64,000 bases of DNA, taken from NCBI GenBank assembly GCA_001774395.1, contig MEZX01000002.1, positions 402,108 to 466,107 on the forward strand, written 5' to 3'. Numbering within the stretch: position 1 is the first letter of the stretch; each line of letters begins with the position of its first letter. A program made the position numbers and the translations under genes. A model generated the notes under the pieces. That model worked only from the letters and a program-made list of their open reading frames with translations, was not told where the DNA came from and searched no databases. This DNA is from Candidatus Berkelbacteria bacterium RIFCSPLOWO2_01_FULL_50_28 (lineage in GTDB: Bacteria > Patescibacteriota > UBA1384 > 2-12-FULL-50-11). Shown here in pieces: positions 5,854 to 61,843 of the stretch.

Positions 5854-7129
5854 AATTGCCTTTATCTGTTTGAGTTGCGGTTTGGAGTCGGCAAAATGGG
5901 CCGGACGATGTAGCGGCTGTGGGCAGTGGAATACAATCAGCGAAAAAGAGCGAGAAGCAACTGAGAGTAATTCGTCCCCGGCCGAAGTAACAAGTTTCAA
6001 AGAATTACCCACGGGGAAAATCAAACGTCTTCGTACCAAAGTTTCCGAATTCGATCGGGTATTGGGTAGTAATGATCCTGGAATTGTACCCGGCACTGTC
6101 ACGCTGATTAGCGGCAGTCCTGGGGTGGGCAAGAGTACGCTACTGCTCCAAGTAGCTAGCGGGGTAGAAAAGGCGGTGTATTTCTCCGCCGAAGAGTCGC
6201 TGGAACAGCTGCGGTTGCGCGGGGAGCGACTGGGTCTGTCTCAGTCTTCTTTACAGCTTTCGGCCCAACGCGACTTGGGGAGAATCTTAGCCGCTGTAAA
6301 CAAAATTCAGCCCAGCCTGGTGGTAATAGATTCTATCCAAACGCTATTTGACGAGACAGTCGCTGGCACGCCAGGGTCGTTAGTGCAAGTGCGAGAGATC
6401 TGCTGGCGCATTCAGCAAATGGCCAAAAACACCGACGTCGCTTTTCTGGTGGTTGGCCACGTTACGAAAGAGGGGATTATCGCCGGGCCGAAAGTTATGG
6501 AGCATCTTGTTGACGTGGTCTTGTATCTAGAAGGTGAGCGGCAGACTGGATTGCGGGTGCTTAGGTGCGAAAAAAATCGTTACGGTCCCACCGATGAGGT
6601 CGGAATCTGGAATTTGGAATCAGCCGGTTTCACCACTGTTGACGATCCAGGCAAACTATTCGCCTCGCTAATAGGCGACGACGTTCCGGGGAGGGCGTTG
6701 ACTGTAGCCGTCGAGGGTTCAAGGGCGTTTCTGGTGGAGGTTCAGGCTCTAACTGCCAGAACTACATTTGGCTATCCCAAGCGTACCTCGCAAGGCATCG
6801 AGCTAAATCGGTTGAACGTCATTCTTGCCGTTCTGGAGAACCGATTGGGAGTACCGATGAGCCAGTACGATGTTTTTCTTAATGTGGTTGGCGGTTTCCA
6901 GGTAAAAGACCCGGGAGTTGATCTGGCGATCGCTGGGGCGCTGCTTAGTAGCTACCACAAAAAAGCCCCACCGGATAAACTAATATTACTCGGTGAAGTA
7001 GGGTTGCTGGGCGAGATTAGGCCGCCGCTACTACTTGAGAGGCGCCAGAAGGAAGCCAAACGACTTGGCTATCAAACTTGGGAGACGTCAGGTACTCTGC
7101 AAAAACTTCACCAATCGTTTCTCAAGTAA
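5822..7129 (+). CDS. radA: DNA repair protein RadA/Sms
   Basis: N-terminal C4 zinc finger (CLSCGLESAKWAGRCSGCGQW), Walker A GSPGVGKSTLLLQ, and a Lon-protease-like C-terminal domain. Confidence 0.85.
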   Translation: MILRSLKMRHKIAFICLSCGLESAKWAGRCSGCGQWNTISEKEREATESNSSPAEVTSFKELPTGKIKRLRTKVSEFDRVLGSNDPGIVPGTVTLISGSPGVGKSTLLLQVASGVEKAVYFSAEESLEQLRLRGERLGLSQSSLQLSAQRDLGRILAAVNKIQPSLVVIDSIQTLFDETVAGTPGSLVQVREICWRIQQMAKNTDVAFLVVGHVTKEGIIAGPKVMEHLVDVVLYLEGERQTGLRVLRCEKNRYGPTDEVGIWNLESAGFTTVDDPGKLFASLIGDDVPGRALTVAVEGSRAFLVEVQALTARTTFGYPKRTSQGIELNRLNVILAVLENRLGVPMSQYDVFLNVVGGFQVKDPGVDLAIAGALLSSYHKKAPPDKLILLGEVGLLGEIRPPLLLERRQKEAKRLGYQTWETSGTLQKLHQSFLK

Positions 7130-11206: not shown

Positions 11207-11746
11207 ATGAAGAAAGGTTTTACTCTTTTAGAGGCGTTGGTGGTGGTGGCTATAATTGGCATCTTAGCCAGCTTATCGATGTATGTATTTACTCAGGCCA
11301 GACGCGCCGCGCGCGATACGATCAGGAAATCTGATCTGACGTCGTTAAGTATTGCCTTTCGGGCTCGGCACGACGTCAAAACTTGCGATGACTTAAGCGA
11401 CATCGGTTACTATCCTGGCCGGCCGATATTTGGTGGCAACCTCTCCCAGTGGCTACCGGTGACCGATCTTACCAACAACGTCAACGACTGCGGCGCTTTT
11501 AGCGAATTTATGACCACAATTCCGACCGATCCTACCCAAGGCGCAACCCATCCCTACGTCTTTAACCTATCTCAACAGCCACCAACAGGTGTAATTAAAG
11601 CCAAACACTTTAGGATTACTGCTCGTCTGGAGAAGACGTCCTCTTCCCAAGAGCTCGACGATTTTGCTAGAATGAGTACGATTTGGGTCAGTACCTACGG
11701 CGGCGTGTCTTACCCGGAAGGGTATAATTTCGTTATTGGCGACTAA
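11207..11746 (+). CDS. type IV pilin-like protein (prepilin N-terminal methylation domain)
   Basis: MKKGFTLLEALVVVAIIGILASL class III signal: G|FTLLE with Glu at +5. Confidence 0.7.
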   Translation: MKKGFTLLEALVVVAIIGILASLSMYVFTQARRAARDTIRKSDLTSLSIAFRARHDVKTCDDLSDIGYYPGRPIFGGNLSQWLPVTDLTNNVNDCGAFSEFMTTIPTDPTQGATHPYVFNLSQQPPTGVIKAKHFRITARLEKTSSSQELDDFARMSTIWVSTYGGVSYPEGYNFVIGD

Positions 11747-19643: not shown

Positions 19644-21038
19644 TTGAGATTAAAAGCTACACTCGTTTCCATCTGTCCGACTGAGGCGGCTACGCAGGCC
19701 GGTAGGCCTTCGCTTACCCCCGAGCTATTGGCTGCCAGCGGTGCGCGATATTCCCGCAATAACGAAGGCTTGGATGCAATCTTGGCCAAAATCGACTGGA
19801 ACAATCTGGACAAATCCGTGGACGGCATCTTCAGGATGATCGACTACGGACATCAAAGCATTACCGATATGTCGCCAGTGGCGATATTCATCGACGGCGC
19901 GTCGCAATACCTTGTCTATCTGCTCTGGGCCATTTGCCAAGTAGTGGGAGGGCAGGAGTCATCGACTCGGTTTATCCTGATGAATCGAGAGGGTTTGATC
20001 GATCCGCAAACGCTGGGGATTCCCGAAGAGCTTCGTGCCGAATGGTCCGAATACAATGAGCGTGCCTTCAGTGCTTACCATCAAGCCTTGGCTTGTTGGG
20101 AGCACCGACTCGATGAAACCCCGCAGCTTGCTCGCATCCCAACGAGTTTGCTAGAGGCGACTGACGATAAATCGATCGCCGCCGTAGCTCGGATGAAGCG
20201 GAACTACGGTTTCGATCGATCGCGCTACTTCGTGCCGACCGGCATGGGAACCAACGTCATGATGATCATGCCGGCGCGTGAATGGGCTAAGCTCTGTCGG
20301 TATCTCCACTCACATATGCTCTCTGAAGCCCAGCAGCTCGGCGCAATGATCATGGAAGAGCTCAACCTCGTCATCCCGCGCTTGTTGAAACATGCCGTCT
20401 ACGATGACGAAACCGTGGATCAGATCTGGGACGAGTTTGATGAAGATCGGGAGAGTCTCGGTAATCCCAGTGATCTCCTGGAGGTCTACCCGACTCCTTA
20501 TCTCGATATCATGCCTGCTCGAGGTACGACCGAGGAAGATGTCGTCAAGGCGCTCAAACATCACAATAATCGCTACGGTCCATTTGGTCGAGCGATTAGG
20601 AGGATGTCAGTCAGATACGGTGTCGACGCCGTTACCCTTGGAGAAATCCGGGACTTCAACCGGCATCGGACGGGCGAGAAGTTCTGCCCACAGACACCTC
20701 TTGGATTCTATTGTGCTCTCGACCAGTGTCAAGACGACCCGGAGACTCTGAAGATCATCACCGAGCTTCATGAAGTCGGTGTTTCATCTACCAGACAGGC
20801 AGCCAAGCTGCTCAAGGCCGGTGACCCGACCTATGCGTACTGGCTGTTGCTTGGGACGCAGTTCCCTTTCGAACAAACGACCACCGGCAACAAAGCCATC
20901 TACACTTGGGAGCTACGGACCGGTCCGGGCGCGCACTATCGCTACGCCGACCACTTCCGTTGCATCCTCGAACTCTGGTATCAGCAATATCCTCAAACAA
21001 GAGGGCTGATCAAGGAGGGCTTGGCCGAGCCGGAATAA
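19644..21038 (+). CDS. thyX: flavin-dependent thymidylate synthase ThyX-like protein, long tandem-domain form
   Basis: Repeat 1 (AASGARYSRNNEG...IDYGHQSITDMSPVAIFIDGASQYLVYLLWA...ESSTRF) looks ThyX-like but lacks RHR. Repeat 2 carries RHRTGEKF (RHR-x7-S-type motif). TTG start with AGGAG SD 6 nt upstream. Confidence 0.5.
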   Translation: MRLKATLVSICPTEAATQAGRPSLTPELLAASGARYSRNNEGLDAILAKIDWNNLDKSVDGIFRMIDYGHQSITDMSPVAIFIDGASQYLVYLLWAICQVVGGQESSTRFILMNREGLIDPQTLGIPEELRAEWSEYNERAFSAYHQALACWEHRLDETPQLARIPTSLLEATDDKSIAAVARMKRNYGFDRSRYFVPTGMGTNVMMIMPAREWAKLCRYLHSHMLSEAQQLGAMIMEELNLVIPRLLKHAVYDDETVDQIWDEFDEDRESLGNPSDLLEVYPTPYLDIMPARGTTEEDVVKALKHHNNRYGPFGRAIRRMSVRYGVDAVTLGEIRDFNRHRTGEKFCPQTPLGFYCALDQCQDDPETLKIITELHEVGVSSTRQAAKLLKAGDPTYAYWLLLGTQFPFEQTTTGNKAIYTWELRTGPGAHYRYADHFRCILELWYQQYPQTRGLIKEGLAEPE

Positions 21039-32899: not shown

Positions 32900-34135
32900 A
32901 TGAAGACTTACATTAAACATGTTCGCACGTTCGCCGGGCATCAACACGGCGCAGGTTTTACTTTAATCGAGTTGCTGATGGTGATCGCCATCATTGGAAT
33001 ACTTGCTACATTAGCGATTGTTTCCGTCCAGGGGGCGCAGAAAAAAGCCAGGGACACTAAACTCAAAACCAATGGGAATGCTATTACTAAGGCGTTAGCT
33101 CAGTATGAAGTTGATAACAGTAAATATTATGTGAGTGCGACTAACACCACATTCAACATAAATAGTGGCGGTAACGAGCTAGACACCGCTCTCTCTCAAT
33201 ACGTTAAGAGTACGGTTTACTCCAGTGGCAATGCGGCAAAATATACAAGTCCGGCCGATGGTTCCTCTTTCGCTCAGGCTTGGCAGCTAGAATCTACTGG
33301 TGAGGCGCCGATTACCAGCGGACCAGGTGTGTACGCCACCAATGCGGGTAACCTCGCTGGAGCAGTAGATGCGGGCAATGGCACAAGCTCAAGCGCTCTA
33401 AGTTTTGACGGCACAAACGACTTTGCGAGCATACCTAATAACGCTGCCTTCAACCCAGCTGGCAACTTCACAGTCTCGTTCTGGGTTAAGCCTTCCGGGG
33501 CTCTGGTGAATGACGCTGGATTAGTTGAAAAATGGAGTGGGCTTGGGGCGTATCCGTTTGCTTTTCGCATAAATAGTGCCACTAGTAGCGTGAAATTCTT
33601 ACGTTTTGACGGTGTGGCTACTACGGTTACCGCGACAGGAACGACGAATATTACCAGCGGTGGCAATAACGGATGGCATCACATTGTTGCGATAAAGAAT
33701 GGAGCATCGGACTCGTTGATCATCAATAATGGTACGGCAGTGACGGCAGCGGACAATTTAATACCACCAACGAACGCCACGGCAATCTTTTTGGGTTCTC
33801 GGGGTGGTGCGAGTAACTTCTTCAAGGGGCAAATTGACGATCTGCGAGTTTATAATACCAATCTAACCACTGGTATTGGATCTCAAGTAGAGGCACTCTA
33901 TAAACTGGGCTTAGGTACTTACGGCGCTAGCGGTATCGCTAACTTAGTGGGGTTATGGAGATTGGACGAAGGGCTAGGAACCACCATCGCTGACGGATCC
34001 ACGACTGCTGTAAACGGGTCTCTAGCAGCCCCAACCGCCACTCCAACATGGGTAGCTGGAAACGCACCCCTAGGCTTCACAGGAATTGGTTCCTCACTAA
34101 CCGGCCGCGCTTTTGTAACTTTCGGAATCCGTTAG
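32900..34135 (+). CDS. large pilin with prepilin leader and C-terminal LamG/concanavalin-A-like domain
   Basis: Leader ...GHQHGAG|FTLIELLMVIAIIG. The C-terminal region (NFTVSFWVKP...GQIDDLRVYN) is LamG-like. Confidence 0.65.
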   Translation: MKTYIKHVRTFAGHQHGAGFTLIELLMVIAIIGILATLAIVSVQGAQKKARDTKLKTNGNAITKALAQYEVDNSKYYVSATNTTFNINSGGNELDTALSQYVKSTVYSSGNAAKYTSPADGSSFAQAWQLESTGEAPITSGPGVYATNAGNLAGAVDAGNGTSSSALSFDGTNDFASIPNNAAFNPAGNFTVSFWVKPSGALVNDAGLVEKWSGLGAYPFAFRINSATSSVKFLRFDGVATTVTATGTTNITSGGNNGWHHIVAIKNGASDSLIINNGTAVTAADNLIPPTNATAIFLGSRGGASNFFKGQIDDLRVYNTNLTTGIGSQVEALYKLGLGTYGASGIANLVGLWRLDEGLGTTIADGSTTAVNGSLAAPTATPTWVAGNAPLGFTGIGSSLTGRAFVTFGIR

Positions 34136-34336: not shown

Positions 34337-34870
34337 ATGAAATTAAGAAAAATGAAGGGTTTTACCCTTATTGAACTGTTGGTCGTTATCGCGATCATCG
34401 GTATCCTAGCGGCGCTCGTTATTGTGTCGCTATCAGGTGCCCGAAATAAAGCAAACGACACGAAGTACAAGAGCAACCTGCGAACCCTCGCGGGTGCGGT
34501 AGAGCAGTACTCATTGGACCAGACCAACCCAGCTGATTATCCGGAAAATGCTGTATCCAACAATGGCGTTGACGAAGCTTTCACTGCGGCTCTCCTTGGA
34601 GCCGAGCTCAACGCGTATCTTGGTCAGGGCGGTACTTCTGCTGCTTGGGACTTTGGCACGCAGACAACGGGTTACGAAGAGGGTAGCACCAACGCCCCAT
34701 CTGAAACATGGGCTAGCTATGTAAAGTTGCTTAATACCAACGACAGCAGCACCGGCGTTCTTGCCGTAACATCAGCGGGAACCGTAACCGTAAATAGTAT
34801 TGTTATGAACCGACTCGGAAATGGTCTAGCGGTTAACGATAAGCTGTTCACGTTCTTCGGTCCGCAGTAG
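34337..34870 (+). CDS. pilA: type IV major pilin candidate
   Basis: MKLRKMKG|FTLIELLVVIAIIGILAAL. Has its own consensus promoter and a tandem terminator. Confidence 0.75.
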   Translation: MKLRKMKGFTLIELLVVIAIIGILAALVIVSLSGARNKANDTKYKSNLRTLAGAVEQYSLDQTNPADYPENAVSNNGVDEAFTAALLGAELNAYLGQGGTSAAWDFGTQTTGYEEGSTNAPSETWASYVKLLNTNDSSTGVLAVTSAGTVTVNSIVMNRLGNGLAVNDKLFTFFGPQ

Positions 34871-35085: not shown

Positions 35086-35871
35086 ATGGAGGCGATAATC
35101 GTTTTTATCTTTGGGTTGATCTTCGGCTCATTTCTGAATGTCGTTATTCTTCGTTTTGATGACTGGCTATCTATTCTGAAGGGTCGTTCGCAGTGCCCAA
35201 AGTGCAAAACGAACCTGGGGTGGTACGACCTGGTTCCGCTGGTCAGCTATATTACGTTGCGTGGCAAGTGTCGTTACTGCACCAAACCAATCTCCTGGCA
35301 ATATCCAGTCGTGGAATTTGCCACGGCCGCCCTGCTTACATCGGGCTACGCCACAATTCTTGCTAACCCGGTTCTGCCCTTGTGGCAAGCCTGGGTGGAG
35401 GTGGCGCTCTTTGCTCTAATCCTCGGTGTGATATTGGTGATTTTCTTTCATGACTTGTACGAAATGATGATTCCCGAGGTCCTGTCATATATTCTGGTTA
35501 TCGCGGCGCTAGCCTTCTCGTTGATCTACTATAATGACGCCCTAGGGACGCTTTACGCCGCTCTGACGGGCTTTTTGCCGATTGCCCTGCTCGTATTTGC
35601 TGGCGGCGGTAAATGGATGGGAGAGGGCGATATAAAGCTCTCTGCAGGTTTGGCGCTATTGGTTGGCTGGCCGTCGGCGGTGGCGTACCTAGCGTTCTCA
35701 TTTATAGGTGGCGGACTCTTCGGTGTAGCAGCGATCGCGGCCGGTCGAGCGAAGCTGAAATCTGCTATTCCCTTTGCGCCGTTTCTAATTCTGGCGGCCT
35801 TTGTCACCTTCTTCTACGGACCACGAATCGTTGGCTGGTATCTGGGCATTTTGGGTTATGGCTACTATTAA
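35086..35871 (+). CDS. pilD: prepilin peptidase PilD (peptidase A24) with N-terminal zinc finger
   Basis: CPKCKTNLGWYDLVPLVSYITLRGKCRYC tetracysteine motif plus polytopic A24 domain (GEGDIKL). Confidence 0.8.
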   Translation: MEAIIVFIFGLIFGSFLNVVILRFDDWLSILKGRSQCPKCKTNLGWYDLVPLVSYITLRGKCRYCTKPISWQYPVVEFATAALLTSGYATILANPVLPLWQAWVEVALFALILGVILVIFFHDLYEMMIPEVLSYILVIAALAFSLIYYNDALGTLYAALTGFLPIALLVFAGGGKWMGEGDIKLSAGLALLVGWPSAVAYLAFSFIGGGLFGVAAIAAGRAKLKSAIPFAPFLILAAFVTFFYGPRIVGWYLGILGYGYY

Positions 35872-36610
35872 GTCAGCAATTAGGCGGGGCTTTACGCTAA
35901 TTGAACTTCTCCTCGTGATAGCTATTATCGGCTTACTTACTGGGCTACTTGTGCCTTCGGTTGAGCGCAGTATGTCAAAGAACCGCGTGGCTAATGACAT
36001 CGAAGTTCTTCGCTCCAAGCTGGAGGAAGTTCGTCTGTTGGCTGGTTCGGCTCGTGACGCCGACGAAGCTTCCAGTGTTACCGAGCGGCCAGATACGGAC
36101 AGAGCTGGCTACTACGGAATCTATTTCCCGCCAACCGATCAGCTGCTCGGCCAGAAGCATTTCTATGCGTTAATTCGTTTGTCTTGGCCGGTCAACGGCT
36201 GGGATCCGGCCGACCCGGGCAACACGGCGAAAAGGCGCTTTGACCCAAATACACCCGGCTACTGTACCCCAGGTCAGGCGGCGCAAGACGCTCGCAACGG
36301 CTCGGGCGACTGCCTCGTGGAACGAGTAAACCTATCTAGCGGCGTTACTTTCACCCTCTTGCCGTACATGTGGCGCAACCGCGTCATCGCTTACCGGGCT
36401 CCTAGCCAACAACTTGTTGAATTATTATGCGAGCGGCCTTGCGAGAACGGTGCCAACCATTGGCAGGAGAACCCGAGCGGTCCGAAGTTCGATCAAGCCG
36501 GAGTCAGCAACGCCAACGGTATCTATTTTGAGCTAAATTTCAGCCTCAAGACGGCAAGAGTGAAATATGCGCCTTATTCGGCTAAGCTAACTGTAGACTA
36601 CTCACTATGA
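35858..36610 (+). CDS. pseudopilin / minor pilin
   Basis: MATIKSAIRRG|FTLIELLLVIAIIGLL. Start set at the internal ATG; overlaps pilD by 14 nt. The ORF track gives 35801. Confidence 0.6.
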   Translation: MATIKSAIRRGFTLIELLLVIAIIGLLTGLLVPSVERSMSKNRVANDIEVLRSKLEEVRLLAGSARDADEASSVTERPDTDRAGYYGIYFPPTDQLLGQKHFYALIRLSWPVNGWDPADPGNTAKRRFDPNTPGYCTPGQAAQDARNGSGDCLVERVNLSSGVTFTLLPYMWRNRVIAYRAPSQQLVELLCERPCENGANHWQENPSGPKFDQAGVSNANGIYFELNFSLKTARVKYAPYSAKLTVDYSL

Positions 36611-37326
36611 AGACATCTCCCCGAGCCTTTTCCCTGCTGGAAACTTTGATTGCCGCCGGGATTTTAATTATCGTCGTTAGCGCTATCACCGCGCTTTCAA
36701 ACTCGCTGGTTGCCGGGACGGTTAACAGCTCCGATCGCGCCGTCACTAACCGTTGGGCCGCTGAAGCACTCGAGCTTACCAAGAAAATTCGTGACGACTC
36801 AGTGAAATCTAGTCAACCGATCTGGTTCTCTCAAGCGGAGAACATCAACAAGTACGGCTGGTACGTTCTGCAAAAAAATATGAGCACCCAACGCTGGGAG
36901 TTGAAAACTTCAACGCTACCCAGTGCGAACGCATTAACCACTTCTCAGGTGATTAATAACGCCGAACCGTTAACGGCTGATGTTTTAAAAGGCTATCGTC
37001 TGATTTGTGTTGAAGCCGTTGGCGCGGTATCGGATCGAAGCAACGAATTCGATCAAGACAGGATTTACTGCAATACTGACCAGTCAAACACCGTCATAAG
37101 TTCTGACGGTAATCGTAGCAACCTAGAAGCTCCTTGCGATGCCGCAGATGTATTTTGCGATCTAACAATGAATTCTGTTCAGAAAAATCACTTCGACCAA
37201 ACAAAAATTATTCCCGCTGGTAGCGCCGTGAAAATCCGCGCTGTAGTACTCTGGCCAGATAAAGACGGCTTCAAAACCACTAGCATTTCAACGATGCTAA
37301 CTAACTGGAAGACAAATGGTTATTAA
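36607..37326 (+). CDS. pseudopilin / minor pilin (PilW/GspJ-like)
   Basis: MKTSPRA|FSLLETLIAAGILIIVVSAI prepilin-type N-terminus. Confidence 0.55.
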   Translation: MKTSPRAFSLLETLIAAGILIIVVSAITALSNSLVAGTVNSSDRAVTNRWAAEALELTKKIRDDSVKSSQPIWFSQAENINKYGWYVLQKNMSTQRWELKTSTLPSANALTTSQVINNAEPLTADVLKGYRLICVEAVGAVSDRSNEFDQDRIYCNTDQSNTVISSDGNRSNLEAPCDAADVFCDLTMNSVQKNHFDQTKIIPAGSAVKIRAVVLWPDKDGFKTTSISTMLTNWKTNGY

Positions 37327-37990
37327 AAAAAGCGGTTACACTCTGCTGGAAATGCTTGTGGCGGTAACCATATTTTCTGGGTTGCTGATAATAGTACTCG
37401 GATCGGTTGCCTCATCGAGCTCGTCGGCGGCGCGCACCTCAGTTCTACGAGAAAAAACAGAAGCCGCTCGTTCGCTTATCGACCAGGTTAGTAACGACTT
37501 TCGTTACATTTATACCGATACTAGCACTGGGGATACAAATGGCGGACCAACTTTTACGGGCTACTATTTTACAACTAATGGCATGGTGATGCTCCTGAAG
37601 TTTCCAAGCACTTCCAGTACCGAGTTTGTGCGCAAAGAGTACTCTGTTAAGACAATAGACAACCGTCTCACTTTAGCGGTTGATGAAAACCGCAGCTGCG
37701 AACTTCGGGGCAATAATAACAACGTCCACTGTGATCCCAACGGCCGAGCTGGAGAGCGCGACCTGCTCTCGGGGCAGTTTGCCCTTAACGGTGGAGCGAC
37801 CGACTTTCTTAGTGATCTTAGTGGCTTAACAATTCCGGACGGTGCAGCCACCGAGCAAAACGGTTGGCTGAAGATCAACTTTACGGTCAAACCAATCGAC
37901 TACGCACCGCTCAACTGTGAGAATTCCACCCAAGTGCCGGAGGGAACATGCTACGAGATTGCCACAACCTTAGTTCCAAACAATCAATAA
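37316..37990 (+). CDS. pseudopilin / minor pilin
   Basis: MVIKKSG|YTLLEMLVAVTIFSGLLII. Confidence 0.55.
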   Translation: MVIKKSGYTLLEMLVAVTIFSGLLIIVLGSVASSSSSAARTSVLREKTEAARSLIDQVSNDFRYIYTDTSTGDTNGGPTFTGYYFTTNGMVMLLKFPSTSSTEFVRKEYSVKTIDNRLTLAVDENRSCELRGNNNNVHCDPNGRAGERDLLSGQFALNGGATDFLSDLSGLTIPDGAATEQNGWLKINFTVKPIDYAPLNCENSTQVPEGTCYEIATTLVPNNQ

Positions 37991-47346: not shown

Positions 47347-49182
47347 TTAGTCCTTGCGCATCAGCTTGTCACCGTGACGAATGGTGGTGCTGTACGCCAG
47401 GGACTGCAATGCAGCCTCCTCAGCTAGCCTCGCTGCTTCAAGCACTTGCTCGTATGCAACTTGCGGCTGAGTGTGACGGATCCGTAGCTCGTTAAGCTTG
47501 TCCTGCTCGTCAAGCGTGAGACAACCGTTCGTTTCAAACGAGCGGTACAGATCTTGCACATCGGTGAGCCCATTTTGGTACGCGAGTTTCCTGAAGTCGC
47601 TCCAGTCTTGGGATCCGGGAAGCACGATCTCGATGAAGTTTCCCCAGGAGAGGATGGTGTTGCCACCAAACTCGTCTAGAGTTGCTTTCACATAACGCGG
47701 GAGTTCTTCGATGTTATCCAGAGTTAAGCCAGAGCCGATAACCATCGATGTTCGAATAAATATTCCATTGTCGCGAGCCAGCTGGAGCATCCGACGGTCG
47801 TTTGTGACCTGTTTGCCTAGTGCTCGCTTTGTCTCCTTATCCCAGCCGTCGATGCCAACGTAAGCGACCTTCACCCCTGTCTGGGGGAGAAGGGGAGCGG
47901 TGTGCTCGTTGATCGAGCCGGCCGTCAAATAGACGTACCGTCCAACCTCCGGCCCACCGTACTTCTTTTTCGCTTTGATGTAGCTTTCGAGCCACATCCG
48001 TTGAGCCGACCCCATCTCCGGGATCCACTGGTTGCTGACATCAAAGAGCCAGTTCGCTCCGTATTTCTCGACCAGCTCGCGTTCAATCGCGAAGTGATCT
48101 TCGAAGTTCCGGAAGCGCGCTATCCACTCAACCCCCTGCAGACTGCAGAAAGGGCAAGCGGCACCAACGGCATTGGCCCAGGCGCAACCGCGACACGACT
48201 CAGTGATGAGCATGCGCGGGGCAACCATCGGTCCAAAGTCGTAGTGACTCATCTCTGTTAACCGTTCAGGGAGGGCTAGCAAGTTGTCGTAGTGAGGCAA
48301 AGCGTAGTGATCCTCACGGGTCACCGGCTTGTATCCCTCTGCAAACTTCTTGCCGTTGAGAAGCAACTCGCCAAGCACCGCCTCAGCATCGCCCACACCG
48401 ACGTGGTCGATGTAAGGCTGACTCAGGTACGCGCTCGGGCAGACCCGGACCAGCTGACCGCCCACACCCGTTCTCAGCTTGTCGCCGAAGTCCGCTTTCA
48501 ACTGCCGAAGCAGATCAAGCGAACCGCAAGCGTTGTAGCTAAGCAACGTGCAAAAGATGACAGGCTCATCGCCGGCATCGAGCACCTCTTGGATGTGGTT
48601 GCGAAGGTAGTTGAGCAGCCAAGGCCGCTCTTCACCTTCCGCAACGTCGGAGCTAACGAACGTCTCGTCGATTGCCAAGCCGGGATACCCCAGCAAGTCG
48701 ATGGTGACCTGGTTTAAGACAGCGACGCTGCCGTTAACCATCAAGAGCGTATCGAAGCGCTCTTCGTACGCGCGATCAGGGCGCGCGTGCACGTAGATCG
48801 GGCGAAGTGTCGCCATACCAACCAAGAATAACGGCCAAGCTCTTCGCCACATCGGGCCGTTCGGCCTAAATGTGATATTGAGCTGCTCTTTAGCTGGAAC
48901 GCGTTTGAAGCAACCTGGGTGGGTGTTGGGTATAACGTCGCCAGATGCCCGCCACATGGCGAGACCAGGGTCGTTGTTCACGAACTCGTTGGTTGAAGCG
49001 TCGTAATGGATAAACTCCGCCGAGCCGTACATTTTGTACTCAGGGACAACGGTGTTCACCTGAAACAGGCTACACACCACAACAACTGCAAGAAGAATAT
49101 GGAAAATGGTTCTCATGGCGGTAACCTCCGAAATCAAATTGTTTAGGGACAATTCCCTTTTAAGGCGTTGCCATACTATCAT
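47347..49182 (-). CDS. radical SAM-like (B12-binding-domain-like + Fe-S core) protein with N-terminal signal/TM anchor and atypical Cys motif
   Basis: N-terminal MRTIFHILLAVVVVCSLF. Central ITESCRGCAWANAVGAACPFCS (C-x2-C-x9-C-x2-C instead of CxxxCxxC). C-terminal rSAM-like TIM-barrel signatures (YVYLTAGSINE, GIFIRTSMVIGSGLT). Confidence 0.35.
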   Translation of the reverse strand: MIVWQRLKRELSLNNLISEVTAMRTIFHILLAVVVVCSLFQVNTVVPEYKMYGSAEFIHYDASTNEFVNNDPGLAMWRASGDVIPNTHPGCFKRVPAKEQLNITFRPNGPMWRRAWPLFLVGMATLRPIYVHARPDRAYEERFDTLLMVNGSVAVLNQVTIDLLGYPGLAIDETFVSSDVAEGEERPWLLNYLRNHIQEVLDAGDEPVIFCTLLSYNACGSLDLLRQLKADFGDKLRTGVGGQLVRVCPSAYLSQPYIDHVGVGDAEAVLGELLLNGKKFAEGYKPVTREDHYALPHYDNLLALPERLTEMSHYDFGPMVAPRMLITESCRGCAWANAVGAACPFCSLQGVEWIARFRNFEDHFAIERELVEKYGANWLFDVSNQWIPEMGSAQRMWLESYIKAKKKYGGPEVGRYVYLTAGSINEHTAPLLPQTGVKVAYVGIDGWDKETKRALGKQVTNDRRMLQLARDNGIFIRTSMVIGSGLTLDNIEELPRYVKATLDEFGGNTILSWGNFIEIVLPGSQDWSDFRKLAYQNGLTDVQDLYRSFETNGCLTLDEQDKLNELRIRHTQPQVAYEQVLEAARLAEEAALQSLAYSTTIRHGDKLMRKD

Positions 49183-49456: not shown

Positions 49457-50794
49457 ATGTTATCTCTCTACAGCACTCTTGAAGGCAAGAAGGAAGAGTT
49501 CAAGCCCATTACACCCAAAAAAGTGGGTATGTACGTCTGTGGGCCAACGGTTTACGATTACGGTCACTTGGGTCATGCCCGCACTTACCTGGCCTTCGAC
49601 CTCTTGCATCGTTTGCTGCGTTACCAGGGTTACGAGGTAAACTACGTTCAGAATATCACCGATGTTGGACACCTGGTTAACGACAGCGAATCAGGGGTAG
49701 ATAAGATAAAACAGAAGGCCCAGGAAACTGGCGAGAGTCCTGGCGACATTGTGCGACGTTATACCGAGGCCCATTTCAAGGACTTAAGGGATCTAAACAT
49801 CTTACAGCCAACAACCTCTCCAAAAGCCTCCGAAAATATTAAAGAAATCATCGATTTTGTCGAAGTACTTCTGCATAAGAAATTCGCATATGTGACCGAC
49901 CTGGGAAACGTCTACTTCTCGGTGGCCCGCAAATCTGATTACGGTAAACTTTCAAGGAGGGGAGTGGCAGAAATTCTTACCGGTACCAGGGTAGAATCGG
50001 CACAAGACAAGCGATCGTCAACTGATTTTGCGCTTTGGAAAGCGGCACCGCACGGCAATACCGAGATGACTTGGGAGTCGCCCTGGGGGCGTGGTTTCCC
50101 AGGCTGGCATATCGAGTGTTCGGCGATGAGCCAGAAATATTTAGGCGATACCTTTGATATTCACGGTGCGGCAGTTGAACACGTTTTTCCCCATCACGAA
50201 AACGAAATCGCCCAATCCGAGGCGGCCACCGATAAACCGATGGCTAACTACTGGGTTCACTCCGGAATGTTGACCATAAACGGCTCAAAGATGAGTAAAT
50301 CGACCCGTAACACTGTTACCGTCCAAGACGCTTTAAAAACATATTCTTCTAACGAGATAAGGCTGGCAATGTATCTCACTCATTACCGAAAGCCTTTCGA
50401 CTTTACCAAGCAAGCGATGCAACAAGGGGTAGCGCTCCGCGGCAAGCTATTTAGCGCCTATGCCAGTGATCTGCCAGAGAAAACTGCTCCAGAGGTGTTG
50501 GAAGAGGTGATAGCGGCTTTAGAGGACGATCTTGATAGCCCACGAGCTCTGCAGGTTTGGTCGGAAGGTGCACTCAAGTTCAACCGAGCCGATTCCGATC
50601 AGCTCTTTGCAATATTCGGTCTTTCCTATATAAGGATTGAAGAGATACCCAGAGCCAAGCAACTGGCCCAAGAGCGCGAGCAAGCCAGAAGCAGTAAGGA
50701 TTTTCTGACGGCAGACAACCGTAAAGCAGAAATCGCACAGATGGGTTTCGAGGTTCTCGACGCCGAAGGCGGCACAGTTTACCTCCCGCATTAA
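49457..50794 (+). CDS. cysS: cysteinyl-tRNA synthetase
   Basis: HLGH and KMSKS motifs, zinc-binding Cys residues. 445 aa. Confidence 0.9.
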   Translation: MLSLYSTLEGKKEEFKPITPKKVGMYVCGPTVYDYGHLGHARTYLAFDLLHRLLRYQGYEVNYVQNITDVGHLVNDSESGVDKIKQKAQETGESPGDIVRRYTEAHFKDLRDLNILQPTTSPKASENIKEIIDFVEVLLHKKFAYVTDLGNVYFSVARKSDYGKLSRRGVAEILTGTRVESAQDKRSSTDFALWKAAPHGNTEMTWESPWGRGFPGWHIECSAMSQKYLGDTFDIHGAAVEHVFPHHENEIAQSEAATDKPMANYWVHSGMLTINGSKMSKSTRNTVTVQDALKTYSSNEIRLAMYLTHYRKPFDFTKQAMQQGVALRGKLFSAYASDLPEKTAPEVLEEVIAALEDDLDSPRALQVWSEGALKFNRADSDQLFAIFGLSYIRIEEIPRAKQLAQEREQARSSKDFLTADNRKAEIAQMGFEVLDAEGGTVYLPH

Positions 50795-50844
50795 TTCCGT
50801 TTTTGACAACTGATAACTGGAAACTGAAAATTGTTCTCTGTCCC

Positions 50845-50873
50845 TTGACAGAGAAGGTGGCATATGCTAATAT
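50845..50873 (+). promoter_or_regulatory. consensus sigma70 promoter (TTGACA-17-TAATAT) at the left edge of the GC-rich island
   Basis: Exact -35 and near-exact -10 hexamers with a 17-nt spacer. The -35 sits in a 9-bp hairpin (TTCTCTGTC/GACAGAGAA). Confidence 0.55.
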
Positions 50874-50903
50874 CCAGTCGTACGTTAAACGAGTATTAAT
50901 TTT

Positions 50904-51010
50904 GTAAGCGCCGTCTCGGCTGGGATTTGGGAGAGCTGCCATTATGTCTTTCCCTTGTGGATTGACGGCAGTTTCCCTCCTTCCCTTTTCCTGGCTGAGA
51001 CGGCGCTTAC
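50904..51010 (+). other. long imperfect inverted repeat (about 20-bp stem, 66-nt loop) in the about 200-nt leader upstream of the first island gene
   Basis: GTAAGCGCCGTCTCGGCTGG ... CCTGGCTGAGACGGCGCTTAC: 14 Watson-Crick pairs plus G-U pairs. The loop contains its own CTGCC/GGCAG stem and a 25-codon mini-ORF. Confidence 0.6.
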
Positions 51011-51084
51011 AATATGTATGAGACTCGCAAAACGCGTTTCGTTAACATTTGTAAGATGACTACTATTTCGCGCAGAGGTGCAAA

Positions 51085-52245
51085 ATGAGAAAGTATGCAA
51101 TCGGAATTCTGTTGGTCGTCATGCTGGGTGTTGCGCCTTTGGCGCAGGCCCAGCTACTGGAAGGGTTGGTCTGGGCTGCTGCAAGCAGTTTTGTCAACAA
51201 CGCGCTGGCCAGGGGCCAGCAAAAGACGGTTTCGGCCGTCAAGGTCATGTGCGACATCCTCACCGAGGACGTCGACGGGAAGTTCTCGCCGACGCCGTTC
51301 GGTTGGGATCCTACCACTCAGACGTCGATCTTCATGGTCGACGGACTGGCGCTAAGGGTTGCCGCGTTCACAAACGGCCCGCCGCCCCACGGTTTGACCT
51401 ATTACCTCAATGATGCGAAGCTCGCGTTTCGCAAGGTTGAGGGAGACAGAGGTGGCAAGGACGGCAAGGGACTCGGAGTGATCGGAGACTATCCGGTCAT
51501 CAAGCCCAGCCAGATGAGATACGGGATCAACCAAATCAAGGTCTACGCCGGAGGGAAGCAGTGGGGCGACTGCACGTTCTGGCGATTACGGTCCGTTAAG
51601 GACGTTCTTGCTGCTATGGGGGACCCAGAGCTTCGCGAGAAGTTGTATGGTTTCGGCGGGGCAACCTACCCTTCGATGCCAACCTTGGTGACGCAGATGC
51701 CGGATGGTTCGCTTGCGACGTTTCATTCGAAAGAGGAAATGGAAGCGACGTTTGCCAAGCTGAATCAGCAGGGCATGCAGGGTGGAAGGTCAACTCCGCC
51801 GCAAGGCGGCAAGATCGATCCGCCGCAACCGCCCGCCGCAGGGCAGACGGTTGATGTCGCAACAACGGCCTCGCCGTTCACGGTGCAGACGCACCTGTAC
51901 GATCTAGCCGAAACGCGCTTCGGTGACAAAGACGCGATCCGGCTGGACTTGGCCACGAAGGCGAGCCAAGCTGGAGCGTTCACTGGCGAAATCCTGTCAA
52001 TTCCTTCGAAGAAAGGGCAGGCGGTCCTCATCAGGGCCGATAGTGAGTTCACTGCGGAGCTCGTTCGCCCTGACGGAACAATCGCAAGGAAGTACAACGT
52101 CGCGCCATTCGAATTCGGGGGCGTGACGCATTATTCAACTATCGTATTGCTGTCCAACGATGGCAAACCGATGTTGAATCAACTCACTCTGCGCTCGGGT
52201 AACGAGCGCCGCATCATCACGTTCACGAAGGAGGAACTACGATGA
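51085..52245 (+). CDS. secreted hypothetical protein (signal peptide), GC-rich island gene 1
   Basis: MRKYAIGILLVVMLGVAPLAQA|QLL signal peptide. About 59% GC against about 48% for flanking genes. Confidence 0.6.
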   Translation: MRKYAIGILLVVMLGVAPLAQAQLLEGLVWAAASSFVNNALARGQQKTVSAVKVMCDILTEDVDGKFSPTPFGWDPTTQTSIFMVDGLALRVAAFTNGPPPHGLTYYLNDAKLAFRKVEGDRGGKDGKGLGVIGDYPVIKPSQMRYGINQIKVYAGGKQWGDCTFWRLRSVKDVLAAMGDPELREKLYGFGGATYPSMPTLVTQMPDGSLATFHSKEEMEATFAKLNQQGMQGGRSTPPQGGKIDPPQPPAAGQTVDVATTASPFTVQTHLYDLAETRFGDKDAIRLDLATKASQAGAFTGEILSIPSKKGQAVLIRADSEFTAELVRPDGTIARKYNVAPFEFGGVTHYSTIVLLSNDGKPMLNQLTLRSGNERRIITFTKEELR

Positions 52246-52880
52246 AACGACTCTGCATTTCGGCTCTCTTGACACTCGTCGCGGCGCTGGGCTTTGCCCA
52301 GTACACTCAGCTCGGTCGGGATCCAATGGTCCCCGGCGGGGTGACTCCAGAGCAGGCAGTTGCCAAGGGGCATCGTCTGTTCAACCTGCCAGTTGATACT
52401 CACTGCAGAATGGGCAGCGGCAGCGGCAAGTGGGTTAACGCTTTCTTGCCCAAGGGGTTGGCGATGGCGGTTCGGCCAGACGGTCGCGCCTATATCCTGT
52501 TCTGCGGCAACGACTCAGACATTCCGGTGGTTTTCGTGAAGGTCCCTGGACCAACCATCCAGCTGCCCGGAAAGCCGTACCCCGTTCCTGGACCAACCAT
52601 TCAGCTGCCCGGAAAGCCGTTTCCCGTGCCCGGGCCGACGGAGTACGTTGATCGATGGTCACTGGTGCTGGCTCCCCAGCAGCAGTACATCGCGAACCTA
52701 CCCTCGCCAACGGTGATCGCGCCGGTCCTGGGCGGAATCACCGCCGTCATCGGCGGCGGGACGAAGATCAACGTATCGAGCACGAATACGTTGGCCCAGT
52801 ACCAGCAACAGGTCGCCGAAGCGGCGGCCGCAGCGGCCGCCGCAGCAGCGGCAGCAGCAGCTGCAGTCGGCGGCCACTAG
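52242..52880 (+). CDS. secreted repeat protein (signal peptide, tandem 14-aa Pro-rich repeats, C-terminal poly-Ala), island gene 2
   Basis: MKRLCISALLTLVAALGFAQ signal. VPGPTIQLPGKPYP repeated 2.3 times. The protein ends ...EAAAAAAAAAAAAAAAVGGH. Overlaps gene 1 by 4 nt. Confidence 0.5.
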   Translation: MKRLCISALLTLVAALGFAQYTQLGRDPMVPGGVTPEQAVAKGHRLFNLPVDTHCRMGSGSGKWVNAFLPKGLAMAVRPDGRAYILFCGNDSDIPVVFVKVPGPTIQLPGKPYPVPGPTIQLPGKPFPVPGPTEYVDRWSLVLAPQQQYIANLPSPTVIAPVLGGITAVIGGGTKINVSSTNTLAQYQQQVAEAAAAAAAAAAAAAAAVGGH

Positions 52881-53002
52881 CCGCCGAACGTATCCAACTG
52901 AGGAGGTGCGGGCCACAAGCCCCACCTCCTCACATCCCTTCTTGAACTAACAGTCGAATTGGTTTAAGAAGTAGATGTGGAAAATTAATAGAAAGGATAA
53001 AT

Positions 53003-53572
53003 ATGAAAGTATTTATAATCTCTTTGGCGACACTTGCGGCCGTGCTACTTATTAGCCCAGCCGTCCTTGCTTCCAGCTCTTCCAGCTCAAGCTCTTCGTC
53101 CGCTGCTGCTTCGGCAGCTGCTGGCGGATCGGCTGCGGCTTCGGGCTCGGCAGGGTCAAGTGCGTCCAGTGCGGGTGGTTCGGGTTCTAGCTCGTCCAGC
53201 TCTTCTGCGGCTTCGGCTGCGGCTGCTGCTGCGGCTTCGGGCTCAAACGGTAGCACGGGTAATACCGTGATCGTTAAGAAACAAGCTACCTGCAAGGCAG
53301 CTTCGGCTGCCGCGGCTGCTGCCGCTGCCGCTTCTGGAACAGGCGCCGATGTATCAACATCTGCTTCTGGTTCCGCTGCTGCCGCTGCTGCTGCTAGCGC
53401 TGTTGCGGTCTGCCCGGCTCGTACAGTTAAGGTTGCGAAAGTAACTAAAACTGTTACCGAGCTACCAGCAACCGGTGCCGAAACGGCACTATTGCCTGGC
53501 TTCGCGACTGCGTTTGCTTTCGCTCTTCGCAAGTATTCACTTGCTAAGCACGAGGCATCGCTTCTTGCTTAA
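53003..53572 (+). CDS. Ser/Ala-rich low-complexity surface protein with LPATG sortase-type sorting signal, island gene 3
   Basis: Signal peptide MKVFIISLATLAAVLLISPAVLA. Long S/A/G tracts. C-terminal LPATG + hydrophobic AETALLPGFATAFAFAL + basic tail RKYSLAKHEASLLA. Confidence 0.5.
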   Translation: MKVFIISLATLAAVLLISPAVLASSSSSSSSSSAAASAAAGGSAAASGSAGSSASSAGGSGSSSSSSSAASAAAAAAASGSNGSTGNTVIVKKQATCKAASAAAAAAAAASGTGADVSTSASGSAAAAAAASAVAVCPARTVKVAKVTKTVTELPATGAETALLPGFATAFAFALRKYSLAKHEASLLA

Positions 53573-53712
53573 GAAGCAGCTCTCTTGGCCTAACCGTCTT
53601 GAGGCTAAAAAACACCCTATTTGGGTGTTTTTTAGTTGCTCTTTTTACTTTAAGTACACCCGTCTAATGACTTTATTGTCCTATAGCACTAAAGTCATTA
53701 AGGTATTAGGTA

Positions 53713-54084
53713 ATGAAAAAAATTGAGATTGATTTAGAAGCGCTTTTCGATGAGCTACCTTTGGGCCCTAAGTCTGGTGTCTTTTGGAAAGAGCGAAGTG
53801 TTCGTCTTGAACGCCGAGCCAAGGCTCGTCATCGAGCCGAAGAGAGGTCTGTGCCAAGGCCAGAACCACCAGATTTTATTAAGGCAATCATTCTACGACG
53901 AGCCCAGCTTAACATTTCCCAAGCGGGGTTGGCCCAAAAGCTCCACACCCATCAAGCCGTCATCTCTCGCCTCGAAACTGGACAAGGCAAGCACCGTTTG
54001 GAATTTCTGATCCGTGTTTATGCCGCATTAGGGTTGAAGTTAAAACTGAGCCTGGAGCTTCCTAATGACAGTAAAGTTATATAG
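53713..54084 (+). CDS. XRE-family helix-turn-helix transcriptional regulator
   Basis: C-terminal HTH ILRRAQLNISQAGLAQKLHTHQAVISRLETGQ (HipB/HigA-like). Confidence 0.6.
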   Translation: MKKIEIDLEALFDELPLGPKSGVFWKERSVRLERRAKARHRAEERSVPRPEPPDFIKAIILRRAQLNISQAGLAQKLHTHQAVISRLETGQGKHRLEFLIRVYAALGLKLKLSLELPNDSKVI

Positions 54085-60913: not shown

Positions 60914-61843
60914 GTGAATGAACTATTTGATAGGGATATCTTGAGCGGTGAGCAGTTCACGCTCGATGAGATTCAGACAGTCATGGGCGTGGCGCATGAT
61001 ATGCGTCGGCGCGTAGCCCATGGCACTCATCTCGACAACTGTCACGGAAAAGTCCTCGCCTCGCTCTTCTTTGAGCCAAGCACGCGGACGCGGCTGTCGT
61101 TTGAGACGGCAATGTTGCGGCTCGGCGGCCAGGTGATCGGCTTCTCTTCGGCGGAGTCGACTTCTGTGAGCAAGGGCGAGACGCTATCAGACACGATTCA
61201 GATGGCGGATCAGTTCGCCAACGTAATTGCGATGCGCCATCCGCGAGTTGGATCGGCGCACGAGGCAGCGGCAGTCGCCGTGCGGCCGGTGATCAACGGC
61301 GGCGATGGAATTGGCCAGCACCCAACCCAGGCGCTTCTGGATCTGTTCACTCTCCAACAAGAACTTGGCGACTTTGACGGAAGGACGATCGCACTGGTCG
61401 GTGATCTGCGGCACGGTCGGACGGTCCACTCGGCGGTTGAGATATACAAGCATTTCAACTGTAGGCTGATCCTGGTTTCGCCTGAGCAGCTTATGCTTCA
61501 GCGTCCAATGGTGGAATCGCTGCACAAGAGTGGCGTGGCCGTCACAGAGACGACAGATCTGGAATCGGCGCTTTCCGCTTCTGACGCGGTCTACATGACC
61601 CGCATCCAGAAGGAACGCTTCGCTGATCCGAGTGAGTACGAAAAGGTGAAGGGCTGCTACGTGCTTAACCGCGAGCTGATCATGCGGACCAATTCGCGCA
61701 TCGTTGTACTTCATCCGCTGCCGCGCGTGGACGAAATTTCCACCGACGTGGACGACCTGCCCGGCGCGGCGTACTTCCGCCAAGCCCAAAACGGGGTTTA
61801 CGTGCGCATGGCGCTAATCGCGATGGTGCTCGGCAAGGCCTGA
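60914..61843 (+). CDS. pyrB: aspartate carbamoyltransferase catalytic subunit
   Basis: STRTRLSFE carbamoyl-phosphate binding motif, HPTQALLD and HPLP motifs. Confidence 0.9.
   Translation: MNELFDRDILSGEQFTLDEIQTVMGVAHDMRRRVAHGTHLDNCHGKVLASLFFEPSTRTRLSFETAMLRLGGQVIGFSSAESTSVSKGETLSDTIQMADQFANVIAMRHPRVGSAHEAAAVAVRPVINGGDGIGQHPTQALLDLFTLQQELGDFDGRTIALVGDLRHGRTVHSAVEIYKHFNCRLILVSPEQLMLQRPMVESLHKSGVAVTETTDLESALSASDAVYMTRIQKERFADPSEYEKVKGCYVLNRELIMRTNSRIVVLHPLPRVDEISTDVDDLPGAAYFRQAQNGVYVRMALIAMVLGKA

Follow-up and report, generated by a model that had tools for sequence, protein, structure and literature searches.

Replacement islands kept by homologous recombination at conserved flanks are an established pattern (López-Pérez et al. 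2014, PMC4033161), and the locus described here, a group of three small genes (A, B and C) behind a structured leader RNA between cysS and prfB of Candidatus Berkelbacteria bacterium RIFCSPLOWO2_01_FULL_50_28, resembles them, as well as O-antigen and capsule loci (PMC4033161), in its fixed position and in the unalignable alternatives held between conserved flanks. The DNA analysed, referred to below as the window, is a stretch of 64,000 nucleotides (assembly GCA_001774395.1, contig MEZX01000002.1, positions 402,108 to 466,107), and all coordinates are positions within it. As in replacement islands, close strains differ in content, the composition is deviant and the products belong to the cell surface. 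Unlike in replacement islands, the exchanged content amounts to two protein genes and not to glycosyltransferase clusters, a structured RNA leader takes the place of a housekeeping gene as 5' flank, the 3' flank falls within a coding tail of low complexity, and the host belongs to the candidate phyla radiation (CPR, or Patescibacteria).

Two kinds of 5' leader also come close to the RNA of this locus. Like riboswitch and attenuator leaders, it lies in a 5' untranslated region (UTR), combines a conserved core with covarying helices and has an alternative pairing in competition for one strand, but no terminator or anti-Shine–Dalgarno output was detected here and the competing helices are very unequal in stability. 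Long structured 5' UTRs are known on S-layer and ompA mRNAs, and like these 5'-terminal stem-loop stabilisers, a long structured leader stands near the transcription start in front of an envelope-protein mRNA, although the sequence-invariant core and the second conformation exceed the generic need of such elements. CPR bacteria are thought to live attached to other cells. To our knowledge, hardly anything has been reported on the regulation or variability of their cell surfaces, structured regulatory RNAs described from these bacteria are few, and the combination of a constant promoter and leader RNA with replaced genes behind has not previously been described.

We read the locus as an 'expression slot' for a variable module of the cell surface, shared across the Berkelbacteria, which are ultra-small bacteria of groundwater and soil and form a small clade. 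The slot would be composed of a conserved promoter, a cis-acting leader, exchanged genes A and B and a conserved gene C, and we put the probability of this reading at about 60 %. The locus is an ancient, clade-specific surface-module locus, for which no new biological principle is needed. It constitutes a compact and testable system, with a promoter, a ~200-nt RNA that has two conserved conformations and three small genes, and the A/B pair would mark strain-level surface diversity in groundwater and soil Berkelbacteria.

The first five homologous loci were found through their proteins or through cysS and not via the core pattern of the leader hairpin, whereas an exact-pattern scan of metagenome contigs with that core returned 66 loci, 18 of them genuine; individual loci are given below as L001, L019 and so on. 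The leader alignment comprises 21 distinct homologues over ~195 nt. In the window, the leader folds at -88.7 kcal/mol (z = -7.3, none of 200 shuffles being as good). The earlier note on this DNA, made from the sequence of the window, had described a stem of about 20 bp with a 66-nt loop; the hairpin is real and its basal stem, P1, extends to 24 bp with three invariant G-U pairs, but the supposed loop is itself structured. P1 is followed by a UUU/UUU internal loop, beyond which GGGAGAG (50929-50935) faces the invariant pyrimidine tract UUUCCCUCCUUCCCUUUU (50972-50989) with a 7-nt pyrimidine bulge that contains CCUCC, and the variable apical stems are capped by stable tetraloops. RNAalifold places 43 pairs, 18 of which show compensatory changes, and 97.9 % of the cells in the alignment pair. 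The 18 double-change pairs compare with 9.7 +/- 1.8 in shuffled alignments and with no more than 7 in slid controls, and all five covariation measures for the core hairpin exceed all 500 shuffles. Covariation is found at the base of P1, in P3 and in the apical stems, whereas the centre, including upper P1, is invariant. Since the helix includes G-U pairs, it is complete only in the RNA of the + strand.

A further helix, P0, closes the whole RNA domain with moderate support. Its 5' strand, CGUUAAGCG, lies a few bases past the predicted transcription start and pairs with a segment ~10 nt beyond the hairpin, and it is present in the minimum free energy (MFE) structure of ~15 of the 21 homologues. 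The proportion of cells that pair is 74.7 %, against 16-44 % in slid controls, and one of its pairs (25-190) occurs as GC in ten homologues, AU in five and UA in one. The covariance model built on the leader finds exactly one copy per locus; the rest of the window, the sequence 3' of cysS in more distantly related CPR genomes and viral contigs yielded none. When the whole window was scanned against Rfam 15, only five tRNAs were recovered and no family reached its gathering threshold at the leader; a search of 50780-51120 at E up to 10 likewise gave no family, its best matches being chance miRNA hairpins at ~19 bits, compared with cut-offs of 54-62. The comparison with Rfam that the earlier note had proposed thus returned no known family, and the comparative data strongly support the leader as a candidate new RNA family. 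The same note had suggested that the hairpin could be a regulatory RNA or an att-like boundary; it proves to be a conserved RNA structure and it does form the 5' boundary of the exchanged segment, but no att-like or integron machinery accompanies it.

The alignment also contains a short element, designated ALT, directly 3' of the UUUACA motif, which is complementary to the 3' basal strand of P1, CUUACAA (51006-51012). As ALT and the base of P1 share this strand, the two helices are mutually exclusive. Own-locus ALT duplexes average -9.39 kcal/mol, compared with -7.53 +/- 0.44 kcal/mol when loci are permuted, and only one of 20,000 permutations was as good. ALT covaries with the 3' base of P1, which is the lineage-variable part of that helix, across at least seven P1-base variants, as the ALT/P1 pairs of individual loci illustrate: UUGUAAG/CUUACAA in the window, AAUCGGCAU/AUGCCGAUU in L041, UGCAGGC/GCCUGCA in L001, AUCAGCG/CGCUGAU in L048 and UUUAGCA/UGCUGAA in L036. 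The cross-locus mean was beaten by 18 of 19 loci for ALT, equal to the P1 positive control, as against 8 of 19 for three control pairings; ALT gave no pairing signal with the P0 strands or with the 5' strand of P1. Because the base of P1 and ALT cannot coexist and both covary, two leader conformations appear, on comparative grounds, to be under selection. Sequestration of the Shine–Dalgarno (SD) sequence of gene A by ALT was considered and rejected, since ALT does not covary with the SD region. A strong SD stands 5-9 nt before the start codon in all relatives and is apparently open in all loci, and no intrinsic terminator lies between the hairpin and gene A in the window.

In the mechanism proposed for the slot, the conserved consensus promoter would transcribe the ~200-nt leader, then the coupled genes A and B, and then gene C. 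The 5' end of the transcript would be tucked into P0, which would enclose the P1-P5 rod, and the leader would act in cis on the fate of the mRNA through 5'-end protection, processing and possibly regulated switching. P1 is much stabler than ALT and emerges before it during transcription, so that in the most economical account ALT forms late: it would replace the 5' basal strand of P1, probably after cleavage or displacement of the rod's 5' half, and would provide the mature mRNA with a new hairpin at its 5' end. Helices of 24 bp are plausible substrates of RNase III. A ligand- or protein-driven switch between P1 and ALT might also operate. A bolder version, which is offered tentatively and is doubtful on present evidence, holds that the leader represents a new RNA-switch class restricted to one CPR lineage, that it responds to a protein, to a ligand or to a processing event and thereby controls expression of an exchangeable module for host attachment or phage reception, and that its invariant sequence doubles as a homology arm, which would couple regulation with antigenic replacement.

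The features of the leader lend themselves to other explanations. A small-molecule riboswitch, in which the invariant internal loops would form an aptamer and a ligand would shift the balance between P1 and ALT, would fit the invariant core between covarying helices, the fixed position in the 5' UTR and the two mutually exclusive helices that are both under selection. It is nevertheless unlikely, as no recognisable expression platform was found (neither an intrinsic terminator nor SD pairing), P1 forms first during transcription and is much stabler than ALT, the downstream genes hint at no metabolite, and a rod with conserved helical sequence and G-U pairs is more typical of recognition by a protein or RNase. 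Similarly improbable is a purely passive role, in which the leader would stabilise the 5' end of a very highly expressed, S-layer-like mRNA without switching: the sequestration of the 5' end in P0 within ~4 nt of the predicted start, the consensus promoter and the strong SD agree with it, but the invariance of the internal-loop nucleotides and the independently covarying ALT would be left unexplained.

That the leader is a stand-alone small RNA, either 6S-like or regulatory, which merely lies upstream of the cassette, is harder still to sustain and is judged decidedly unlikely. In its favour, the promoter is strong and dedicated, the succession of closing helix, internal loop and long stem is loosely reminiscent of 6S RNA, the U-rich UUUACA is conserved past P0, and L041 carries a canonical terminator-like hairpin at this place. 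However, neither 6S nor another Rfam family matched at E up to 10, most loci lack a terminator, there is no second promoter before gene A, the SD of gene A follows 70-130 nt downstream in every cassette type, and ALT lies past the putative 3' end. UUUACA was also tried as the -35 box of a second promoter and was rejected, for no -10 box follows at the proper spacing. In relatives that extend far enough upstream, the promoter keeps the same -35 box, 17-nt spacer and -10 box, followed by a 6-nt discriminator and GTAC, which would place the transcription start near 50880. The consensus promoter that had been read from the window is present, with a TG extension of the -10 box in addition, and the general description of the locus as a surface- or secreted-protein operon behind a strong, conserved promoter is supported. 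A second promoter-like site, TTGACA-17-GAAAAT, lies at 50803-50831, 42 nt before the conserved promoter; no counterpart is visible in the sequences of relatives. The 25-codon mini-ORF (open reading frame) noticed in the leader exists, but its frame is not conserved in relatives; as a gene it was rejected, since many loci lack its AUG and loci differ in reading frame along the invariant 3' strand.

The layout cysS - promoter - leader RNA - A-B-C - prfB recurs in ~20 relatives, and the order cysS, hairpin, a ~2.5-3 kb cassette, an optional XRE gene, prfB and ybaB is seen in every locus with enough flank. Homologues of gene A lie directly 3' of cysS wherever upstream flank exists, and the remaining contigs start within the leader. 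These relatives are far from identical: CysS and release factor 2 (RF2, the product of prfB) are 63-70 % identical among them, CysS of the nearest species representative is 65 % identical, and gene A is 25-38 % identical or undetectable. The cassette itself is constant in plan, with an A protein of 305-440 aa, a B protein of 212-320 aa with a low-complexity tail and a C protein of 170-200 aa, each bearing a putative signal peptide. Among loci with enough flank, no close relative has an empty site with cysS abutting prfB, and no donor lineage carrying the whole cassette at high identity was found.

The composition of the cassette is deviant. GC content amounts to 0.56-0.62 across 51000-53600 and to 0.45-0.50 in cysS, the XRE gene and prfB, which bears out the jump reported from the window, and 47800-49000 and 61-62 kb also reach ~0.58, the GC-rich block not being unique in the window. 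The GC content at third codon positions (GC3) of A and B is 0.57-0.77 in every locus, compared with 0.37-0.61 in flanking genes (in L044, 0.64 and 0.65 for A and B versus 0.37 and 0.38), so that A and B are GC3-rich whatever the GC content of the host lineage. The GC3 of gene C is only 0.40-0.49, host-like or lower, and its high GC content therefore stems from Ala, Ser and Gly codons. Unusually high GC3 is also found in two other genes of the window, at 60914-61843 (0.70) and 19644-21038 (0.63), and the compositional heterogeneity of this genome extends beyond the cassette.

Elevated GC and GC3, together with the tiny, unannotated protein families, might point to an adhesin island recently acquired from a foreign, higher-GC donor and inserted between cysS and prfB, as had been supposed from the window. 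This explanation was rejected as very unlikely, since the slot, promoter, leader and gene C occur in all relatives, at the level of housekeeping-gene divergence given above, the GC excess is seen in every lineage irrespective of host GC, gene C has a host-like or lower GC3, and no integrase, tRNA or direct-repeat boundary is associated with the cassette. The earlier note had named synteny of the same three genes in all relatives as an argument against acquisition; the architecture is indeed syntenic, but the A and B genes themselves differ, and what survives of the horizontal reading is a lateral exchange of A and B within the clade. For genome scans, the case is a caution that orphan secreted proteins in a GC-rich patch may belong to an ancient locus of replacement and not to a recent insertion.

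The exchange is visible as mosaic breakpoints. In all-against-all BLAST comparisons, A and B fall into at least four co-varying, mutually unalignable types, and profiles of type I and type II A proteins gave an hhalign probability of 7.5 %, with no detectable homology. L025 and L037 show 97.7 % nucleotide identity over the leader, none over A and B, and 88.9 % from the 3' tail of B through gene C. L055 and L079, which are of different types, are 97.5 % identical through cysS and the hairpin and diverge 24 nt past the hairpin, and L043 and L060 likewise break just past it. One metagenome (Ga0209542, with L043, L060, L079 and L088) holds several types, at least three. The cassette thus shows what defines an allelic replacement island, namely unalignable alternatives between conserved flanks that differ in near-identical strains. 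Given such alternatives in near-identical backgrounds and the deviant composition, A and B are laterally exchanged within the clade. In the proposed mechanism, they would be swapped by homologous recombination between two flanks, the conserved leader upstream and the low-complexity B tail together with gene C downstream, and diversifying selection arising from phage or from host-attachment specificity is presumed. Of all the explanations considered, the least probable is that the inverted repeat acts on the DNA itself, as a site-specific recombination site of att or attC type at which cassettes would be captured. As at integrons, an imperfect ~110-nt inverted repeat lies beside exchangeable promoterless genes behind a fixed promoter. 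The breakpoints of exchange fall at the 3' end of the hairpin or leader, and the P0 strands GTTAAGC/GCTTAAC of most relatives fit the integron core GTTRRRY and its inverse; the GTTAAAC of the window agrees on either strand with the inverse consensus but not with GTTRRRY itself. This explanation was rejected because the order of the motifs (RYYYAAC...GTTRRRY) is reversed relative to attC, the three invariant G-U pairs make the structure strand-specific, no IntI or other recombinase is encoded nearby, each locus has a single copy with none at the 3' end of the cassette or after each gene cassette, and the 3' breakpoint lies in ordinary homologous sequence (the B tail and gene C).

Little in the sequence of A and B betrays their function. 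The three ORFs with signal peptides that had been predicted in the window, of 386, 212 and 189 aa, are present, and their signal peptides were judged by eye (AQA/Q, GFA/Q and VLA/S for A, B and C). None of the three contains a Pfam or NCBIfam domain above threshold, in agreement with the description of the 386-aa protein as lacking a recognisable domain, and for A and B searches of Pfam, NCBIfam, PDB sequences and Foldseek gave nothing past generic Ig-like sandwiches. The AlphaFold2 model of gene A, based on a 29-sequence alignment, has a mean predicted local distance difference test score of 83.6 and comprises a helix after the signal peptide and two beta-sandwich domains (~50-232 and 263-383) joined by a disordered Pro-rich linker; in Foldseek it found only generic tandem Ig-like matches with TM <=0.2. 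Six homologues of gene A were found in a collection of 5.8 billion protein clusters and 29 cluster representatives among 1.84 billion proteins. Gene B contains the 2.3 tandem VPGPTIQLPGKP(Y/F)P repeats and the run of 15 Ala ascribed to it at the outset. The stop codon of A and the start codon of B share the sequence ATGA, an arrangement that suggests translational coupling. A and B would accordingly be seen, in the slot reading, as secreted beta-sandwich proteins occurring in several unalignable allelic pairs.

Strain-level variation was seen in L019, a locus of the same species, which is 99.75 % identical to the window over 6.4 kb (its positions 5819-6478 correspond to 51085-51744). Of the 16 mismatches, twelve are crowded into the final 75 nt, within gene A at the end of the assembly, which suggests strain-level polymorphism of gene A that breaks assemblies. 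Hypervariation by a diversity-generating retroelement was considered for this mismatch cluster (51662-51733) and rejected, as the cluster lies at the contig end and is not adenine-specific.

Gene C is conserved by vertical descent. Its signal peptide, MKVFIISLATLAAVLLISPAVLA followed by SSS, has a typical look by eye and is conserved in orthologues. Like LPXTG sortase substrates (PF00746, TIGR01167), gene C combines a putative signal peptide with an LPATG, LPQAG or LPKAG motif that lies ~35 residues before the C-terminus and is followed by a hydrophobic segment and a cluster of basic residues; in the window LPATG occupies residues 152-156 of 189 and is followed by the hydrophobic AETALLPGFATAFAFAL and by RKYSLAKHEASLLA. 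Among relatives, the stalk is Ser/Ala-, Asn- or Gln-rich, and tblastn matches to the C-terminal 27-63 aa reach identities of 52-69 %; the C-terminus has 18 invariant positions, which include LP..GAE..LLPG and a terminal E-A-x-L-L-A. Unlike LPXTG substrates, gene C has an unusually long, conserved tail after the membrane segment, R[KR]xxLAKKEAxLLA, which as a cytoplasmic tail is atypical for a sortase signal, and a profile of its C-terminal signal recovered only four orthologues and no wider substrate family. The Pfam Gram_pos_anchor model (PF00746) gives 12.0 bits against a cut-off of 20, and neither TIGR01167 nor any other NCBIfam model matched at E up to 1. The view of this C-terminus as a classic sortase signal is thus upheld in its LPATG motif, hydrophobic segment and basic tail, but not by the models or the nature of the tail. 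As noted before, the 64-kb window contains no sortase gene: no TLxTC-type motif was found in its ORFs and no SrtA match by tblastn. Sortases are common among CPR bacteria, more than half of whose genomes carry a sortase family (PMC6744442). Gene C would form a stalk whose C-terminal anchor may be a sortase-type LPxTG signal or just the transmembrane segment, and A and B would probably dock onto it. The composition of the B tail equals that of the C stalk genome by genome (Ala/Ser-rich in the window, Asn-rich in L041, Gln-rich in L044), and this shared composition, together with the similarity that resumes in the B tail, suggests that the tail belongs to the conserved C-side module; it may mediate docking.

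The annotation of gene C is affected by its composition. The NCBI entry A3A71_02030 of RIFCSPLOWO2_01_FULL_50_28, a bacterium of the Rifle aquifer, covers only 101 aa of it, with the C-terminal 66 residues 100 % identical, and metagenomic orthologues were called as fragments of 29-103 aa, the low-complexity region defeating gene callers. An antisense Ala-rich ORF at 52930-53532, which the earlier note had entertained as the real gene, is a shadow frame, for the sense frame is open in 7 of 7 orthologous loci and the antisense frame is broken in 3 of them.

Several observations weigh against the expression-slot reading. ALT shows no covariation with the SD region, and neither an SD-sequestering helix nor a terminator was found. 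The base of P1 has a stability of ~-26 kcal/mol and ALT of ~-9, and as P1 is far stabler, ALT cannot compete at equilibrium unless the 5' strand is removed. The MFE fold of the window itself lacks P0 and uses a local hairpin instead, and two of five whole-helix measures for P0 are no better than those of shuffles. Most homologues came from the exact core pattern, so that the invariance of 21 bases is partly one of ascertainment; the five loci found via proteins or cysS already carried the invariant core. Selection, rather than exchange, could explain the high GC3 of A and B, and other genes in the window also reach GC3 values of 0.67-0.70. The sorting signal of gene C falls under the hidden Markov model cut-offs and no sortase was seen in the window. 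Lastly, the transcription start, the co-transcription of gene C and any processing are predictions made from the DNA, as is the putative A-B-C operon as a whole. The coordinates of the features on which the reading rests are collected in Table 1.

Table 1. Features of the cassette between cysS and prfB in the window.
Feature	Position	Strand	Sequence or content	Support or remark
Sigma-70-type promoter	50845..50873	+	TTGACA, 17-nt spacer, TG-extended TAATAT	Same arrangement in relatives that extend far enough upstream
P0 5' strand	50883..50893	+	CGUUAAACGAG	Pairs with 51024-51034; closes whole RNA domain near 5' end
Core hairpin P1-P5	50902..51012	+		Folding, covariation, covariance model
P0 3' strand	51024..51034	+	CUCGCAAAACG	Alternatively local mini-hairpin
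Near-invariant motif 3' of P0	51042..51047	+	UU(U/A)ACA	Alignment; not a plain U-tract, no -10 box after
ALT element	51048..51055	+	UUUGUAAG	Copies P1 5' basal strand; own-locus duplex permutation test
Shine–Dalgarno sequence of gene A	51075..51080	+	GAGGUG	Direct reading
Gene A (type I), 386 aa	51085..52245	+	Putative signal peptide, N-terminal helix, two beta-sandwich domains	
Gene B (type I), 212 aa	52242..52880	+	Putative signal peptide, VPGP repeats, conserved APQQQYI(A/G)NLxSPTV motif, poly-Ala tail	
Hairpin directly 3' of gene B	52899..52932	+	GC-rich, without U-tract	Sequence
Second conserved element, upstream of gene C	52933..52977	+	CAUCCC..ACAGUCGAAUUGG..AAGUAGAUG	Locus comparison
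Gene C, 189 aa	53003..53572	+	Putative signal peptide, Ser/Ala/Gly stalk, two conserved Cys, LPATG-AETALLPG, membrane-spanning segment, RKYSLAKHEASLLA	
Intrinsic terminator ending the operon	53603..53647	+	15-bp stem, then T-run	Sequence

The spacer between B and C holds two further elements. The hairpin directly 3' of gene B is present in 8 of 8 loci examined with a different sequence in each, and may act as an attenuator or 3' stabiliser. The element that follows it is identical in the window, L040 and L093 and occurs as a compensated variant in L025 and L037, with weak support across all loci, for which the alignment is poor for covariation. The spacer could comprise an attenuator plus a second RNA motif, or the promoter of gene C.

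The neighbours of the cassette are recR, a radical SAM gene, cysS, the XRE gene, prfB and ybaB; no integrase or recombinase, other mobility gene, tRNA or direct-repeat boundary was found among or beside them, and a repeat search returned low-complexity repeats only. The radical SAM gene (47347-49182, - strand, GC3 0.67) encodes a 611-aa B12-binding protein with a weak resemblance to maturases of ribosomally synthesized and post-translationally modified peptides, and it is kept upstream of cysS in L019 (100 % identity) and L040 (74 %). The XRE/HipB-like helix-turn-helix gene (53713-54084) is directly preceded by a 14-nt inverted repeat (53665-53700), which is likely its own operator. It stands between the cassette and prfB only in the window and L040 and is absent from L037, L041, L044 and L084, which places it outside the conserved module. 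Elsewhere in the window, a cluster of type IV pilus genes (11207-11746, 32900-34135, 34337-34870, 35086-35871 and 36607-37990) comprises ORFs with type IV pilin-like N-termini (GFTLIEL or GFTLLEA) and a probable prepilin peptidase.

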